64,000 nt of DNA from an uncultured delta proteobacterium (GTDB lineage: Bacteria; Desulfobacterota; Binatia; Binatales; Binataceae): assembly GCA_963765675.1 (NCBI GenBank), contig CAVXXK010000001.1, positions 352,001 to 416,000 on the forward strand, given 5' to 3'. Position 1 is the stretch's first letter; every line of letters begins with the position of its first letter. Under the pieces are notes generated by a model. It was not told the DNA's origin. It worked only from the letters and a program-made list of their open reading frames with translations, and ran no database searches. Below, piece after piece: positions 5,029 through 47,821 of this stretch. The translations under genes and the position numbers were made by a program.

Positions 5029-5589
5029 TTACGAGCGCATCAGCTCTGCTTCGTCGGCGGCGAGAGTCGCGTAAACCTCGCGATCGATCTTGCGATAGCG
5101 ATCGAGCGAGGCGTCGGCCTGCTCTTCGGAGCCCTGCTCTTTCGCGATCTCGCGCATCTTCTTTTCGATCCACGACAGATGCCAGGTCTCGTCCTTGGTG
5201 ACCGCGGCCAGGACCTCGAGCGTCTCCGCGTCGACGTTGGGCAGCGCAGCATGCGCGTTGTAGCGGCTCTGCGCGCGCTCTTCGACCACTACAGTCAGGG
5301 CGAGCAGATCGATTATCGTCTTGGGGACGCCGGTGCGCAGACCGAGCCGCCGCTGATATCCATCATCGACCATCACCGGAGCGCCGCCCAAATCGGCAAT
5401 CCGCTTGGTCCACAGCCACGCGTGGCGAGTTTCGTCGGCCAGATGCGCCGACATCTTTAGCTGCGAATCGCCGTCTTTGAGATGAGTTATGAGATTGAAA
5501 AGGAGGCGGGCGCCTCGAAGTTCGGCATCGCGATAGAAGCTGAAGATAAGAATCTGCTTCTCGTTGGCCGACATGCTACTGAAATCCAT
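5029..5589 (-). CDS. Ferritin-like di-iron carboxylate protein
   Basis: E..DETRH..EE..DETWH ligand pattern; GGAG RBS before ATG 5589. Confidence 0.8.
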   Translation of the reverse strand: MDFSSMSANEKQILIFSFYRDAELRGARLLFNLITHLKDGDSQLKMSAHLADETRHAWLWTKRIADLGGAPVMVDDGYQRRLGLRTGVPKTIIDLLALTVVVEERAQSRYNAHAALPNVDAETLEVLAAVTKDETWHLSWIEKKMREIAKEQGSEEQADASLDRYRKIDREVYATLAADEAELMRS

Positions 5590-40067: not shown

Positions 40068-41537
40068 ATGGCGCAAGATTCGCGCATAGGGAAAGGCGGC
40101 CTCGCCGCGATCGTGCTCGCTGCCGGACTCGGCACCCGGATGCGCTCGGCGCGGGCCAAGGTTCTGCACGAGATCGGCGGCAGCGCGATGGTCACGCGAG
40201 TCATCCGCGCGCTCGAGGCGGCGGGCGCCGCGCCGATCGTCGCCGTCGCCGGCTATCAGGCGCGCGACGTTGAGGCCGCTGTGCGCAATGCCGCCGCTAG
40301 TGCGCAGATTGCAATCGCGATTCAGGCCGAGCCGCGCGGCACCGGCGACGCCGCGCGCTCAGGCATTGGCGCGACTCCGCCGGACTACGCCGGTGACGTA
40401 CTGATCGCATACGGCGACATGCCGATGCTGACCGCGGCGACGCTTTCTGCGTTCATCCGTGCGCATTACGAAAGCGGCGCGGCGCTGTCGTTCATCAGCG
40501 TGGTCCTCGATAACGGCGGCGCGTACGGGCGAGTGCTCCGCGACGCTGACGGAGCGGCGCTCGCGATCGTTGAGGCGCGCGACGCGTCGCCGGCGGAACT
40601 CGCGGTCCGTGAAATCAACACCGGAATCTATATTGCACACGCAGGCTTTCTGCGCGCGGCGCTTGCCGGCCTCCAACCAAAGAACGCGCAGCATGAATTT
40701 TATCTGACCGATATTGTCGCGTCGGCGCGCAAGCGCGGACTCGCGGTCCAGGCGTGGCGGGCGCGGGACGCGGCGGAATTCGCGGGCGTGAACACGCGCG
40801 AGGAGTTGGCATCGATGGAAACCGTACTTCGTGACCAGGTGAACCGGCGGCTGATGGCGGCGGGAGTGACGTTCGTCGATCCCGCTTCGGCGTATATTTC
40901 CGACCAGGCGGAGATCGCCGCCGACGTGATCATCGGACCCAATGTGCAGATTCTCGGGCGATGCCGCGTTGGCGCGGAGACCAGAATCGAGGGCACCGCG
41001 TGGCTGAAGGACGTCGAGATCGGCGAGCGATGCCATATCAAGCTGGGCGTTCGCGCCGAGGAGTGCCGGATCGGCGCGGACTCGGAGATCGGACCATTCG
41101 CGAATCTGCGCGCTGGGACTGACCTCGAGGGGCACAATCGCATCGGCAATTTCGTCGAAACCAAAAAGGCAAAAATCGGACACGGCACCAAGGCCAGCCA
41201 TCTGAGTTACCTGGGCGACGTGACGATCGGCCGCGACACCAACGTCGGATGCGGCGTGATCACCGTCAACTATGACGGCTACGAAAAGCACGCCACCCAG
41301 ATCGGCGACCGCTGCATGATCGGATGCGACACCCAGCTAGTCGCGCCAATCAAGGTCGGCAACGACGCGTACGTCGCCTCGGGCACGACAATTATCCGCG
41401 AGGTTTCCGATGGCGCGCTGGTGATGTCGAATCATCCGCAACGCGAAAAACCCGGCTGGACCGCAACCTGGCGCAAACGCCACGGCGACAACGGCACTGG
41501 CTCGACGAGTCACGCATCCAAGCCCTCCGGCAAATGA
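40068..41537 (+). CDS. glmU: Bifunctional GlcN-1-P acetyltransferase/UDP-GlcNAc pyrophosphorylase
   Basis: LAAGLGTRMRS, GTGDA, YGR, EINTG, EFYLTD, GNFVE.K, HLSYLGD, NYDG. Confidence 0.97.
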   Translation: MAQDSRIGKGGLAAIVLAAGLGTRMRSARAKVLHEIGGSAMVTRVIRALEAAGAAPIVAVAGYQARDVEAAVRNAAASAQIAIAIQAEPRGTGDAARSGIGATPPDYAGDVLIAYGDMPMLTAATLSAFIRAHYESGAALSFISVVLDNGGAYGRVLRDADGAALAIVEARDASPAELAVREINTGIYIAHAGFLRAALAGLQPKNAQHEFYLTDIVASARKRGLAVQAWRARDAAEFAGVNTREELASMETVLRDQVNRRLMAAGVTFVDPASAYISDQAEIAADVIIGPNVQILGRCRVGAETRIEGTAWLKDVEIGERCHIKLGVRAEECRIGADSEIGPFANLRAGTDLEGHNRIGNFVETKKAKIGHGTKASHLSYLGDVTIGRDTNVGCGVITVNYDGYEKHATQIGDRCMIGCDTQLVAPIKVGNDAYVASGTTIIREVSDGALVMSNHPQREKPGWTATWRKRHGDNGTGSTSHASKPSGK

Positions 41538-41564: not shown

Positions 41565-42443
41565 GTGCGGCAGATTTCTCGCCGAAAGCTGCTGATCGCC
41601 TCGTTGCTCGCCGGGCCGGCTCTGTTGAGTTTTCGGGCTGCTGCCGATGATCAGGACGCAGAGTTGCGACGCAGAGTTGCCGATCTCGAACGGAGGCACG
41701 GTGGCCGGCTTGGCGTCGCGGTTCTCGATACCGCGAGGATGAAGCTGATCGCACATCGTGGTGACGAGCGCTTTCCCATGTGCAGCACGTCCAAGTTTCC
41801 AACCGCCGCATTCGTCATGGCGCGGGTTGATCACAAGCAGGAGAGCCTGGGCCGCCGGATCGTCTATTCGAAGGATTACCTGGTTCCGTATTCCCCGGTC
41901 ACCGAGAAGCACGTCGGCGGCGACGGACTGACCGTCGGCGAAATCTGCGGAGCGGCACTGACCCTCAGCGACAACACGGCAGAGAACCTGCTCCTGGACA
42001 CCTTCGGCGGGCCGGCGGCATTGACGGCCTACCTCCGCTCGCTTGGAGACAGGGTCACTCGGCTCGACCGGCGTGAACCGGAGCTGAACACAGCCATCCC
42101 CGGCGATCCGCGCGACACCACTACTCCGATCGCGATGCTGGAAATCCTGCACAAGATCATCCTCGGTACCGCGCTATCGGCCTCCTCTCGCGAGCAACTG
42201 ACCGCGTGGATCGTCGCAAGTAAGACCGGCGACAAGCGCTTGCGCGCAGGCATGCCAAAAGGTTGGCGCGTCGGAGACAAGACCGGCTCCGGGCCGAACA
42301 ATGTAACGAACGACATCGCCGTCGCATGGCCGCCAGCGCGCGCACCAATAATCGTGACGGCCTACTATGCTGGCGCTCGCGCATCGGATGACGAGCGGAA
42401 TGCGATCCTGGCAGAGGTCGGCCAACTCGCGCTGACGGTTTGA
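41565..42443 (+). CDS. bla: Class A beta-lactamase with twin-arginine-like signal
   Basis: ERFPMCSTSK (S70xxK), SDN, DRREPELN (E166/N170), RDTTTP, DKTGSG; N-terminal SRRKLL. Confidence 0.92.
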   Translation: MRQISRRKLLIASLLAGPALLSFRAAADDQDAELRRRVADLERRHGGRLGVAVLDTARMKLIAHRGDERFPMCSTSKFPTAAFVMARVDHKQESLGRRIVYSKDYLVPYSPVTEKHVGGDGLTVGEICGAALTLSDNTAENLLLDTFGGPAALTAYLRSLGDRVTRLDRREPELNTAIPGDPRDTTTPIAMLEILHKIILGTALSASSREQLTAWIVASKTGDKRLRAGMPKGWRVGDKTGSGPNNVTNDIAVAWPPARAPIIVTAYYAGARASDDERNAILAEVGQLALTV

Positions 42444-42545: not shown

Positions 42546-42619
42546 CTTTGGTAAGGGAAACGAAGCCCGAATTTCTATCGAGGTGATGGTCGAGCTGATT
42601 CAACGCATAGGACGAGAGT

Positions 42620-42766
42620 AGCGCCAGGACTCGGATTGTATTCGCAATCCGAGTTGACGAGGTGGAAGCTTCATCGAAAGATTCGGCGGATGGCTTCCCG
42701 GTTCCACGGCCGAAAAAGGCGAACAAACCACGCGGGTGACCGCGTGACAAAAGCCGCCTTGAGTGG
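42620..42766 (+). ncRNA. glmS riboswitch-ribozyme (GlcN6P-activated self-cleaving RNA)
   Basis: A/GCGCCAGGACT cleavage site; P1 actcggattg/caatccgagt; TTGACGAGG; P2 ggaagc/gcttcc around ATCGAAAGATTCGGCGGAT; P3 cggtt/ggccg; P4 aaggcg/cgcctt with ACAAA bulges and a cacgcgg-GTGA-ccgcgtg hairpin; P3.1 ccac/gtgg; 5' of glmS. Confidence 0.93.
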
Positions 42767-42937
42767 CAGGGCAAGATGCCCTGACGAAGATTAAACTCTC
42801 CCGCTTTGATCATCCCCTTCGATTCCGGATCGCACGGACGCGACGAGCGCGGCTCGTGGCTCTCGTGATTCCCGAAACTGCCGCGCAAAAGTGCGGCGCA
42901 ACGCTATCTCTGCAACTGATGCGGAGGGGGAATCATT

Positions 42938-44771
42938 ATGTGTGGAATCATCGGATACGTCGGAGCGGATGAGGCCTATCCCATCCTGATTGAAGGGTTG
43001 GCTCGCCTCGAATACCGCGGCTACGACTCGGCCGGCGTCGCGACAATCGTGCAGAACGGCAAGCTCGAGATTCGCCGCGCGGCCGGCAAGCTGGCCAATC
43101 TGCGCACGCGTCTCGCCGACGCTCCGCTTGGCGGCCGGATCGGAATCGGACACACGCGCTGGGCCACCCACGGCCGCCCGTCCGAGGAGAATGCACATCC
43201 GCACAAGGCCGGCCCGGTCGCAGTGATTCACAACGGAATCGTCGAGAACTATCTTGAGCTGCGCGCCGCGCTGCTCGCGCGCGGCCATCAGCTTCGCTCG
43301 CAAACCGACACCGAGCTGATTTCTCATCTGATCGAGGAACGGATCAAGGCGGGACTCGGGCTGACTGAGGCGGTCAGACGCTCGGTCGGCGATCTGCGCG
43401 GCTCATTCTCGATCGTGGTCTTGTCGGAGACCGAGCCCGGCAAGCTGGTCGCGGCGAAGACCGCGACTCCGCTGGTTCTTGGACTTGGCGAGGGCGAGAA
43501 TTTCGTCGCGTCCGATATTCCCGCGATCCTGAACCACACGCGCAGGGCGATCGTGCTCGACGACGGCGAGCTGGCGGAAATCACCGCGCATAGTGTTCGA
43601 ATCATGAAGTTCGACGGCACGCCCGTCACGCGGACGCCGCGCCATATCGAATGGGACGCCGTCGCCGCAACCAAGGGCGGTTTCAAACACTACCTGCGCA
43701 AGGAGATAAGCGAGCAGCCGCAAGCATGGATCGACACGCTGGCCGATCGCGCGATCGCTGGATCATCAGAGGTCCGCTTCGACGAGGAGCTTCTGCCCGC
43801 CGGCGGCCCCGGACTCGATCGGGCGAATCGTGATGGTGAGCGAAGGGGCGTCGTGGATCACGGCGAATATCGGGAAATACATGATCGAGGAGCTGACCGG
43901 AATTCCGGTCGAGGCCGACTTCGCCTCGGAGTTCCGCTACCGCCGCGCGCCGATAGATTCGCGCACCATGATGATCGCGATCTCTCAGTCGGGCGAGACT
44001 GCCGACACTCTGGCCGCGATGGAGGAAGGCATCCGGCGTGGCGCGCACGTGATCGCGCTGACTAATACTCTCGATTCGTCGATCGCGCGGCGCGCGCACG
44101 CGCGGCTGTACACGCGATGCGGTCTCGAGATCAGCGTGACTACGACCAAGTGCTTCATCACCCAGGTCGAGGCTTTCTATCTGTTCGCGATTCATCTCGC
44201 TGCCCGGATGGGGCGCCTTAACGCCGCCGAGGCCGAGGCGCTGCTGGCACCGGCGTTCGCGATTCCCGCGCAGATGAAAGCGATCTTCGCGCTCGAGCCC
44301 GAGATCGAGCGGATCGCGCGCACCTACGCGTCCGCGCGCGATTTCATCTATATCGGCCGCGGGATCAATCATCCGGTCGCGCTCGAAGGCGCGCTCAAGC
44401 TGAAGGAGATCTCTTACATCCACGCCGAGGGCTTTCCCGCGGGTTTCATGAAGCACGGCCCGATCGCGCTGATCGACGAGTCGGTTCCGGTCGTGGTGCT
44501 GATTCCCAACGATGACCTGTTCGACAAGATGCTCTCGAACCTGCGCGAGGTTGAATCGCGCGGCGGAAAGATTATCGCCGTGACCGACCGCGCCACCGAC
44601 GAGCTGCGCTCAGTCGCAACCGAGGTACTCGAGCTTCCGGCGACCAACCGGATGCTCACGCCGGTGCTGATGACTATTCCGCTGCAACTGCTCGCCTACC
44701 ATGTGGCGGCGGAGCGCGGCACCGATATCGACCAGCCGCGCAACCTCGCGAAATCGGTGACGGTCGAGTAG
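42938..44771 (+). CDS. glmS: Glutamine-fructose-6-phosphate aminotransferase (one +1 frameshift near 43808; divergent isomerase motifs)
   Basis: MCGIIG, LEYRGYDSAG, HTRWATHG, SQSGETADT, LKLKEISY, PRNLAKSVTVE; an extra C in the cccc run at 43807-43810 joins the two ORFs. Confidence 0.93.
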
Positions 44772-44846: not shown

Positions 44847-46146
44847 TTACGGCGCCGCGGCGACCATCGCCTTTACCGTGCAGAAGTCCTTGTCCACCGC
44901 GCCCATGTTGATGTACCAGCATTCGCGCTCGGGCGTGTTCTGGCCGGGCAGATAGCACATCGTCGAGATTCCGCCCTCCATGTCGACTCGGCTGGCGCCG
45001 ACTACGAACTCGCGCTTGAACGGATAGATCGCCACGCGAGCGTCCGGCACCGGCCGGTCGCGATAGGCCAGCCAATAGATATTCGAGCGCCAGAGTTGAC
45101 CCTGTCGATCGTAGGTATCGACCAAGGGATCAAACCACACTTCGCTGTCGATGTAGATGATCGAGTTCTTGTCCAGCGCGCCGCCCGCCTGGCCAAGATC
45201 GCGGCGCGGGGTCGCGTTGATGACGTAGACGTGGCGCATCTCCCAATCTTCCGGGCACGCCGAGGCGCCACCGTCGGTCGGGCAGGTGACCTCCGGAGAA
45301 TGCTTGGCATGCACGCTCATCAGCATCTCCTTGTCGCCCAGGAATTTGTAGTCATAGAACTCGGTCTTGGCGTTGAAGCCGGAATAGTGATCCGGATCAA
45401 ACTGCTGCGTCCCGGTCGCCGAGCTCAGGATCGCCTCGTTCAACCGGCGCACGCGCCGGGTGCCGGGGTTCCAGTCCCACGAGTCGTCGCCGCGCTTGGG
45501 ATCCATGTACCGATAACGGATTAGTCCCTCTCCGTACGCATCCGCCGGCGCGAGAATCGGATACAGCGCAAACAGCCACATCCGGCCCGTGATCTTGAAG
45601 TCCGGGTCCGTCGGCAGCGGCTCGACCTCGGTGCGTCCGACCAGCGAATAGCCCGCGTAATGGCCGACCCAGATGTCGTTGATGATATGCTGGGACTGGC
45701 CGGGGCGTACGTACTGAATCTGGCAATCGTAGAAGCGCAGATCGTAGTCGTCGGTCTGAATCGGACGGAACACGTTATTCCACATCACCTTGTTGGCGAC
45801 GTAAGGATCGTTCGAATCGATCAGCGGAAACGGCTGTCCCGCGACGTATCCGATGAGCGAACGATGGTCGCTGGTCAGGCGCACCTGCGCGGAATACTTT
45901 TCGGTCGCGTCCTTGTACGGCGGCGGCCAATCGATCCGCTGAGTCGGCACGATGTCCATCTGCATCCCGTGCGTGACCATGTAATAAACGCCGGGGCCGA
46001 CGACATCCTTGACCTGTGTCGCGTTCTGCGGGGTGATTACATCCCCCGGTTTGACTGTGGCTGACGCGAGCGGACGTAGCCGCGAAGACCGCGAGGATCG
46101 CGACCGCGCCAGCGAGCGAGACTCTGGCTAACACCCGCTTGAGCAT
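44847..46146 (-). CDS. DUF1329-type exported protein, copy 1 (frameshift near 46060-46100)
   Basis: Signal MLKRVLARV in one frame, body (VKPG.VIT, YVAGQPFP, PGTRRVRRL, YDRQGQLWR) in another; near-identical to copy 2. Confidence 0.75.
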
Positions 46147-46312
46147 CCAAGAAACCTCCTCGAGCAAAGAAAAATCATGCTTTCGGCAATCCTATCATGT
46201 GAAGCCCACAAGACTTACCCGCCGCACGTTAGAATGCGCACGAAAAATCTTCCTTACACGCATTAGGTACGATTGCCGAGGCGGATCGGATTGAATGTCA
46301 GGCGGAATCAGC

Positions 46313-46387: not shown

Positions 46388-47686
46388 TCACGGCGCCGCG
46401 GAAACCATCGCCTTCACCGTGCAGAAGTCTTTATCGACCGCGCCCATATTGATGTACCAGCACTCGCGCTCCGGCGTGTTCTGGCCGGGCAAATAGCACA
46501 TCGTCGAGATTCCGCCCTCCATGTCCACCCGATCGGCGCCCACCACGAATTCGCGCTTGAACGGATAGATCGCCACGCGCGCGTCTGGCACCGGCCGGTC
46601 CCGATACGCCAGCCAGTAGATATTCGAGCGCCAGAGCTGTCCCTGCCGATCGTAGGTATCAACCATCGGGTCGAACCAGACTTCGCTGTCGATGTAGATG
46701 ATGGATTCCTTGTCCAACGCTCCGCCTGCTGCGCCCAGGTCGCGCCGCGGCGTCGCCTGGACCACGTACACGTGACGCATCTCCCAGTCTTCCGGACACG
46801 CCGACGCGCCGCCGTCAGTCGGACAAGTGACCTCGGGAGAATGCTTCGCGTGCACGCTCATCAGCATCTCCTTGTCGCCCAGAAATTTGTAGTCATAGAA
46901 CTCCGTCTTGGCGTTGAACCCAGAGTAGTGATCCGGATCGAACTGCTGCGTTCCGGTCGCCGAGCTCAGGATCGATTCGTTGAGCCGGCGCACGCGACGG
47001 GTTCCCGGAGTCCAGGTCCACGAGTCGTCGCCACGCTTGGGATCCTCGTAGCGGTAGCGAATCAGGCCGGTGCCATAAGCGTCCGCCGGAGCGAGAATCG
47101 GATATAAAGCGAACAGCCACATCCGGTTAGTGATCTTGAAGTCAGGATCAGTCGGCATCGGTTCGACCTCGGTACGTCCAACCTCCGAATAACCTGCGTA
47201 GTGCCCCACCCAGATCTCGTTGATGATGTTATGCGACTTGCCGGGGCGGATGTACTGAATCTGGCAGTCGAAGAAGCGCAGGTCATAGTCGTCGCTCTGG
47301 ATCGGACGGAACACGTTGTTCCACATCACCTTGCTCGCGACGAAAGGATCGTTCGCGTCGATGAGCGGAAATGGCTGCCCGGCCACGTATCCGATGAGCG
47401 ATCGATGGTCGGTGGTCAGGCGGACCTGCGATGAGTACTTCTCGGTCGCGTCTTTGTACGGTGGCGGCCAATCGATCCGTTGGGTCGGTACGATATCCAT
47501 CTGCATCCCGTGCGTGACCATGTAATAGACACCGGGAGTGACGACATCCTTGACCGATGTGGCGTTGGCGGGAGTGATTACTTCTCCCGGTTTCACAGCC
47601 GCCTGGGAGCATAGCGATCCGGCGACGATGAGAAACATCGCTAACGCTCCAGTAAGAATACCTCTGGTCAGCACCCGGTTGAGCAT
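46388..47686 (-). CDS. DUF1329-type exported protein, copy 2
   Basis: Signal peptide, G.PFP, RRVRR, YD..GQLWR motifs; GGAGG RBS. Confidence 0.78.
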   Translation of the reverse strand: MLNRVLTRGILTGALAMFLIVAGSLCSQAAVKPGEVITPANATSVKDVVTPGVYYMVTHGMQMDIVPTQRIDWPPPYKDATEKYSSQVRLTTDHRSLIGYVAGQPFPLIDANDPFVASKVMWNNVFRPIQSDDYDLRFFDCQIQYIRPGKSHNIINEIWVGHYAGYSEVGRTEVEPMPTDPDFKITNRMWLFALYPILAPADAYGTGLIRYRYEDPKRGDDSWTWTPGTRRVRRLNESILSSATGTQQFDPDHYSGFNAKTEFYDYKFLGDKEMLMSVHAKHSPEVTCPTDGGASACPEDWEMRHVYVVQATPRRDLGAAGGALDKESIIYIDSEVWFDPMVDTYDRQGQLWRSNIYWLAYRDRPVPDARVAIYPFKREFVVGADRVDMEGGISTMCYLPGQNTPERECWYINMGAVDKDFCTVKAMVSAAP

Positions 47687-47821
47687 CCGAGAAACCTCCA
47701 TAAGACAAAGTATCTGTTTAGATTAGTGTTGATCTATTGAGCCGTAATTGCTTCCGAAAAAATCTAATGCTCGGATTAGCGCAGGTTGTCCTCGCCGCAG
47801 CTGTTGCGTTGTTTTGCGCTC

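Follow-up and report, generated by a model that had tools for sequence, protein, structure and literature searches.

GlmS (glutamine--fructose-6-phosphate transaminase) is an essential, highly conserved drug target, and the residues of its sugar site are usually taken as fixed. The glmS ribozyme is a self-cleaving leader activated by glucosamine 6-phosphate (GlcN6P). The best-described enzyme, Escherichia coli GlmS (PDB 1MOQ, 2VF5 and 4AMV), consists of an N-terminal nucleophile (Ntn) glutaminase domain that begins at Cys1, a double-SIS isomerase domain and a C-tail, and the leader is known from Gram-positive bacteria and Deinococcus. Here we analysed a 64,000-nucleotide stretch of DNA (hereafter the window; contig CAVXXK010000001.1, positions 352,001 to 416,000) from an uncultured delta proteobacterium of the family Binataceae. 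It carries a ribozyme-headed glmS gene with the same domain order as that of E. coli. A first-pass annotation of the window had noted that the sugar-binding pocket of this GlmS is remodelled, and had offered two explanations: a compensated variant, or an amidotransferase acting on another ketose phosphate. Our analysis indicates that the gene probably encodes a functional GlcN6P synthase whose pocket changes compensate one another, rather than part of a new amino-sugar system. What is new is a lineage-specific variant of the pocket; the kind of enzyme is already known.

The glmS gene and its sugar-binding pocket

The gene spans 42938-44771 and is read in two frames, the first from 42938 to about 43812 and the second, which holds the isomerase domain, from 43815. 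Residues were numbered by alignment to the E. coli GlmS chains 3ooj_A and 1moq_A, counting from Cys1; the positions given in the first-pass annotation (C300/T302 and A400/S401) agree with this alignment. The features of the ribozyme-glmS unit are as follows.

42609..42771, + strand: glmS ribozyme; RF00234, 92.9 bits (gathering score 37), E 5.4e-21, model positions 1-167 (full)
42938..43812, + strand: N-terminal part of glmS, Ntn glutaminase domain (MCGIIGY...) and linker; NF001484 362.9 bits, TIGR01135 358.2 bits, profile positions 1-276, 1-273 for NF001484 alone; Pfam GATase_6 and GATase_7
43811..43814, + strand: frameshift site, one extra base; ACTC versus CGC, AGC or CAC in relatives, from a DNA alignment with 10 genomes of the genus
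43815..44771, + strand: C-terminal part of glmS, isomerase domain with two SIS subdomains and C-tail, stop codon included; NF001484 404.7 bits, TIGR01135 392.7 bits, profile positions 286-607, 286-601 for NF001484 alone; Pfam SIS twice
43842..43853, + strand: E-G-A-S codons GAA GGG GCG TCG; S-E-G-A-S stands for A299-C300-G301-T302-S303, giving C300E and T302A
43860..43862, + strand: Thr at 306, replacing Ala at the level of the family; present in 94% of Binataceae rows, 0/107 diverse GlmS
43878..43880, + strand: Tyr at 312, where other Binataceae have Phe; with E300 and F501 it makes up the three fixed changes of that clade
44136..44150, + strand: V-T-T-T-K for V399-A400-S401-T402-K403, giving A400T and S401T
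44406..44408, + strand: catalytic Glu E488 (LKLKEIS), kept
44445..44447, + strand: Phe (TTC) for E501 in AGFMKHGP, three residues ahead of His504
44454..44456, + strand: catalytic His H504 (KHGP), kept
44751..44753, + strand: catalytic Lys K603 (AKSVTVE), kept

The MCGIIGY start supplies the Cys1 nucleophile, and the class-II (Ntn) glutaminase domain was matched. Because the gene is split, each half alone scores below the TIGR01135 cut-off of 418.05 (358.2 and 392.7 bits); the intact orthologues in two genomes of the genus, G009 and G005, reach 752.3 and 757.9 bits with this model and 769 and 775 bits with NF001484. GlmS was matched in all 40 related genomes, where the reading frame stays open for about 610 residues. 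An AlphaFold2 (AF2) model of the window's isomerase domain (predicted local distance difference test score, pLDDT, 94.4) superposed on the isomerase domains of E. coli, Francisella, human and Candida with template modelling (TM) scores of 0.88-0.94 in Foldseek, and the domain matched the E. coli chains with an E value of 2e-79. SIS-only relatives (the GlmD and NagB-II deaminases and the FrlB deglycase) have this isomerase-domain fold in common with the window gene, which differs from them in its added glutaminase domain and its far higher GlmS scores. From these matches, the gene is glmS, and it probably encodes the housekeeping glutamine--fructose-6-phosphate transaminase of a Candidatus Binataceae bacterium. 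The ribozyme lies on the same strand as its 5' leader, with the start codon of glmS (42938) 167 nt 3' of the ribozyme end.

The 43815 frame contains ...RIVMVSEGASWITANIG..., ...EISVTTTKCF... and ...PAGFMKHGP..., together with SQSGET, LKEIS and AKSVTVE. All the motifs quoted earlier are thus located in this frame, 3' of the shift, and are not out-of-frame artefacts. Nor are the variant residues sequencing noise, as each of the other 10 genus genomes carries the same ones. According to the accessible part of PMC9272926, the catalytic residues of the isomerase are E488, H504 and K603, all of which are retained in the window and in every relative of the motif table given below. The Glu replaced by Phe is E501, outside these three; the idea that the replaced residue was the catalytic base E488, or that the catalytic base had migrated, was ruled out by the alignment to the E. 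coli chains. In human hGFAT-1, Thr376 and Ser474 (counterparts of T302 and S401) hydrogen-bond sugar hydroxyls, Ser377, Ser421, Gln422 and Thr426 (counterparts of S303, S347, Q348 and T352) bind the phosphate (accessible part of PMC7000685, here and below). The same paper has His504 working in the partner subunit's site. The phosphate-binding residues S303, S347, Q348, S349 and T352 are kept in the window, as S303 and the SQSGET loop. Of the two sugar-hydroxyl ligands, T302 is replaced by Ala, and S401 by Thr with its hydroxyl retained. Compared with E. coli GlmS, the window enzyme therefore has E488, H504, K603, S303 and the SQSGET loop in common and differs by C300E, T302A, A306T, A393C, A400T, S401T and E501F, as well as by the one extra base that splits its gene. 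A literature search on the roles of E501 and Cys300 returned nothing on E501 and, for Cys300, only docking results that place it in the pocket lining (accessible part of PMC9272926), and none of the six residue names sought occurs in the review PMC10087520.

Distribution of the pocket changes

We compared the three pocket motifs in 29 relatives. One relative from the window's genus (G010, locus L015) is unpublished, and the counts hold for the other 9. The loops around positions 300, 400 and 501 read as follows.

Other families of the class, 6/6 rows: ACGTA; V(A/C)STKA; AGEMKHGP
Other genera of the family, 13/13 rows: AGAS (MGAS in one row); VTTTKC; AGE[ML]KHGP
The window's genus, 10/10 rows plus the window: EGAS; VTTTKC; AGFMKHGP

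Position 401 is Thr in every family row shown in this table. We also scanned 185,579 species genomes for A-G-F-[MLI]-K-H-G-P. The scan returned 67 loci, of which 54 were chance matches in unrelated frames and 13 were GlmS, all 13 from Binataceae or from metagenome-assembled genomes (MAGs) labelled 'uncultured delta proteobacterium'. Close relatives found in the protein search include Candidatus Binatus soli. The first-pass annotation had asked whether EGAS and GFMKH co-occur in one clade, and they do: E300 and F501 were found together in 11/11 genomes of the genus, in 12/12 of the scanned F501 GlmS that extend to position 300, and in 14 of the best 120 clusters at 90% identity. About 103 of these clusters carried A300 with E501, and the intermediates E300 with E501 and A300 with F501 numbered 0.

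These positions were also tallied in diverse GlmS proteins, the 150 closest representatives of 50% clusters in a set of 1.84 billion proteins. The residues were distributed as follows.

Position 300: C 136, M 4, gap 10
Position 302: T 119, S 21, gap 10
Position 400: A 141
Position 401: S 117, A 25, T 7
Position 501: E 147, Q 2, M 1
Catalytic positions: E488 150/150, H504 150/150, K603 149/149 with a residue

We then scanned 318 isomerase-domain positions column by column, comparing 20 E300/F501 rows with 116 from other Binataceae and 107 from diverse GlmS. Five positions formed a family-level signature (C300A, T302A, A306T, A393C and A400T), and A300, A302 and T306 each occurred in 0/107 diverse GlmS. 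Just three fixed differences separated the E300/F501 clade from other Binataceae, namely A300E, F312Y and E501F, two of them at sites that are 97% conserved in the 107 diverse GlmS. Position 497, which is Y in 82/103 diverse rows, is F or L in the E300/F501 rows inspected. E300 and F501 were found in none of the 107 or 150 diverse GlmS, so the variant motifs are not common in GlmS. As judged from these alignments, the pocket changes are inherited and lineage-specific, and were acquired at two levels, family and subclade.

Proteins from outside the family provide independent support, from sequence comparison, for a link between positions 300 and 501. E501 is lost (to M or Q) in 2/4 representatives with M300, versus 1/136 with C300 (Fisher p 0.0018, kinship ignored), with 39-51% identity among the M300 proteins. 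The M300+Q501 form was held in 12/12 full-length cluster members read from SAR202 Chloroflexota. SAR202 GlmS thus provides another natural lineage that has lost E501 and changed position 300 as well; it differs from the window enzyme in that Q for E is conservative, T302 and A400 are canonical and a carboxylate at 300 is absent.

Based on these data, we propose an enzyme that would make GlcN6P from fructose 6-phosphate (Fru6P) and glutamine, supplying GlmM and GlmU, with the ribozyme acting as product feedback. Its pocket would have changed in two steps. In the whole family, C300A, T302A, A306T, A393C and A400T, with Thr at 401, would have removed the sugar-binding T302 hydroxyl and introduced new hydroxyls at 400 and, a helical turn further along from 302, at 306, while Cys was lost at 300 and gained at 393 and 404. 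In the subclade that includes the window's genus, A300E, F312Y and E501F, together with Y497 to F or L, would then have removed a carboxylate at 501, beside the His504 loop, and placed one at 300, with a hydroxyl gained at 312 and lost at 497. The changes would be mutually compensating and the chemistry the same, the functional groups being moved, not lost. Because Ala already stood in place of C300 across the family, the subclade step was A to E. The compensated variant suggested by the first-pass annotation (C to E with E to F) therefore holds for the constant pairing of E300 with F501, which make up two of the three subclade-fixed changes, but not for the starting residue at 300. The secondary structure of the model (a helix at model residues 209-214), taken with the work of His504 in the other subunit's site (PMC7000685), would put E501 and H504 on one face of a short helix, with E501 pointing toward position 300 of the partner subunit.

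Alternative readings of the pocket and the frameshift

Selection and pathway context both bear on how the pocket should be read. Within the genus, 45 pairwise ratios of nonsynonymous to synonymous substitution rates (dN/dS) for glmS ranged from 0.042 to 0.197, with dS up to 1.14, and the codon of Glu300 varied synonymously between GAA and GAG; the value for the C-terminal part of the window gene against its nearest relative was 0.042. The gene is under strong purifying selection. The window genome (4.52 Mb in 16 contigs, 95.6% complete) was searched for the second, canonical glmS raised in the first-pass annotation, and none was found in it; the sole other hit was a distant SIS-only paralogue. 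glmM is present in the genome (588 bits), and the search of the genome for nagB gave nothing above the cut-off (36.6 bits versus 236.9). Each of 24 other genomes of the family contained at least one glmS-like gene. glmU and the paralogue are listed below.

40068..41537, + strand: glmU, last enzyme of the UDP-N-acetylglucosamine (UDP-GlcNAc) pathway; TIGR01173 491.9 bits (cut-off 366.85)
G000:C1:1879546-1880637 (L002 1453-2718), - strand: SIS-only GlmS-like paralogue; GlmS models 134-146 bits, NagB-II 76 bits against 430, GlmD 54 bits, all below cut-off

A sole glmS, the presence of glmM and glmU, nagB not found and a ribozyme that has been kept point to an ordinary role for the gene, as the sole source of GlcN6P. 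In one genus genome (G002, 79% complete with 4% contamination), a second GlmS match of 72% identity was seen at G002:C217:20168-21121, which may be a genuine second copy or may have come in as contamination from a different Binataceae genus.

The frameshift noted in the first-pass annotation is genuinely in the window sequence, as one extra base at about 43811-43814 relative to 10 genomes of the genus, and is unique to the window assembly among the 11. Two metagenomic contigs of relatives span the site and lack one base at 43813; they come from other strains, 90-95% alike. Neither half of glmS contains a stop codon or a further indel. A second gene nearby, a DUF1329 gene of the LolA-like lipoprotein-sorting family, changes frame near 46070-46090, 2.3 kb from the glmS frameshift, and its G009 orthologue is intact. 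G009 has a frameshift of its own (L105, G009:C3 ~5308-5332, window ~48046) close to the 3' end of a gene some 450 residues long, at a point where G005 matches the window. A rate of about one frameshift in every 10-20 kb of MAGs of few contigs resembles assembly indel errors. We consider it fairly safe to regard the glmS frameshift as such an artefact, and the organism probably has an intact 610-residue GlmS.

Several observations weigh against the proposal as a whole. The human counterpart of T302, which is Ala here, binds a sugar hydroxyl (Thr376; PMC7000685), and position 302 is T or S in 140/140 diverse GlmS that have a residue there, so substrate binding could differ. An isomerase-domain tree built without the two trait columns joins all 13 E300/F501 rows (Shimodaira-Hasegawa-like approximate likelihood ratio test, SH-aLRT, 79), and an approximately unbiased (AU) test on the N-terminal domain did not reject a single clade (p 0.125); the perfect co-occurrence may thus reflect one event on one branch. 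The part missing from a genome that is 95.6% complete could hold a second glmS. A search for sequencing runs that contain the window strain found none (best share of words 0.23), and the extra base lies outside any long homopolymer. These last points leave some room, though not much, for a real frameshift in a recently inactivated glmS, in a strain reliant on outside amino sugars or on a copy in the unassembled 4%. Such an inactivation fits poorly with halves free of stop codons and further indels, with a C-terminal dN/dS that shows no relaxation and with an intact ribozyme; neither nagB nor a second glmS was found, and both the shifted DUF1329 gene and the shift within the same 20 kb of the low-contig G009 assembly point to assembly error.

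The pocket itself could be read in two other ways. The remodelling might alter binding, so that the enzyme takes another ketose phosphate, responds differently to its product or resists a natural inhibitor of the Fru6P site, in which case the ribozyme would control a non-canonical enzyme. The family-wide T302A, the absence of A300, A302 and T306 from the diverse set and the entry of a charged Glu at 300 in the genus all speak for this. We nevertheless regard it as improbable, because the catalytic and phosphate residues are intact, the genome has glmM and glmU but no further glmS-like gene, no other GlcN6P source was found, and the ribozyme, whose cofactor is GlcN6P (accessible part of PMC5473149), is kept in 11/11 genomes of the genus. 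The amidotransferase for another ketose phosphate and the undescribed amino-sugar system that had been suggested thus gained no positive support. The implied link between ribozyme and remodelling is also weak, as the family-level pocket is present in the 9/14 other genera in which the ribozyme was not found. Alternatively, the enzyme might be an ordinary GlmS in which independent, near-neutral substitutions became fixed on two long branches, with neither compensation nor functional effect. A single origin of the E300/F501 pair, which the isomerase tree and the AU test allow, would make its co-occurrence one historical accident, and Q501 and M501 in other lineages suggest that E501 is dispensable. 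This is unlikely given that only 3/318 isomerase positions are fixed for the subclade, two of them at highly conserved sites, that the family-level set is concentrated on the conserved pocket-loop positions 300, 302, 306, 393 and 400, and that loss of E501 is enriched with M300 outside the family. We therefore favour a GlmS with a compensated pocket. Its retained synthesis of GlcN6P from Fru6P and glutamine, as judged from the single copy, pathway context and ribozyme, is very probable. Physical compensation between positions 300, 312 and 501, which we infer from their co-occurrence, stands at about even chances. It is doubtful that an active-site carboxylate migrated from E501, on the loop of the ring-opening His504 that according to published work reaches into the partner subunit's site, to 300 on the opposite pocket wall, with F312Y and Y497F/L re-packing around it. 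If it did, and if the dimer interface brings 300 and 501 opposite one another, a functional group would have hopped between chains in an essential, near-invariant enzyme, and together with the loss of T302 this might alter sugar specificity, product inhibition or sensitivity to inhibitors of the Fru6P site.

For enzymologists the lineage is of moderate interest, with no pointer to a new amino-sugar pathway. A whole soil lineage without T302 and C300, and a subclade with Phe for E501 and Glu at 300, show which pocket positions change together and offer natural double and triple mutants with which to probe how the sugar site and the His504 loop work. That E300/F501 arose twice independently was also considered, since a whole-protein FastTree set two proteins (P0169 and P0192) apart, but is not supported, as the isomerase tree groups all the E300/F501 rows and the AU test does not reject one clade. 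The N-terminal domains of these two proteins are 87-90% identical to that of P0232, an A300/E501 protein from 'Candidatus Binatus sp.', and their isomerase domains group with the E300/F501 rows; they may be recombinants between Binataceae glmS alleles.

Ribozyme distribution and neighbouring genes

The ribozyme was searched for in relatives at increasing distance.

Window's genus, window included: 11/11 genomes, 52.6-93.5 bits
Other genera of the family, one genome each: 5/14
Other families of the class: 0/16
Further genomes sampled across the phylum (stricter filters): 0/150

Counted over all other genomes of the family, it was present in 15/24, and the arrangement of ribozyme and glmS is identical in relatives. 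This pattern suggests that the ribozyme was gained within Binataceae, or lost many times elsewhere. According to a 2017 review, ribozymes of this class regulate glmS 'in many Gram-positive bacteria' (accessible part of PMC5473149), and a literature search pairing the glmS ribozyme with Binatota found nothing. As in the Gram-positive and Deinococcus cases, the window match is full-length, on the same strand and directly 5' of glmS; the host lineage differs. Elsewhere in the class and phylum the ribozyme was found in 0/166 genomes; its patchy occurrence in a lineage once classed with the Deltaproteobacteria extends the range of hosts known for it. The gap 5' of the ribozyme varies within the genus, from about 50-66 nt in the window to about 570-1220 nt in G005 and G009.

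Two further genes flank the unit.

41565-42443, + strand: class A beta-lactamase gene, between glmU and the ribozyme-glmS unit
44850-46167, - strand: DUF1329 / LolA-like lipoprotein-sorting family gene, broken; signal peptide open reading frame (ORF) 45775-46167 in another frame than the mature part 44847-45980

The beta-lactamase matched NF033103 with 335 bits against a cut-off of 200, and its closest named families, PAD and BKC/GPC, were below cut-off. The broken DUF1329 gene is adjoined by an intact paralogue at 46388-47701 (PF07044, 149.8 bits). Beside the distant SIS-only paralogue are two ORFs that may resemble nitrile hydratase subunits.

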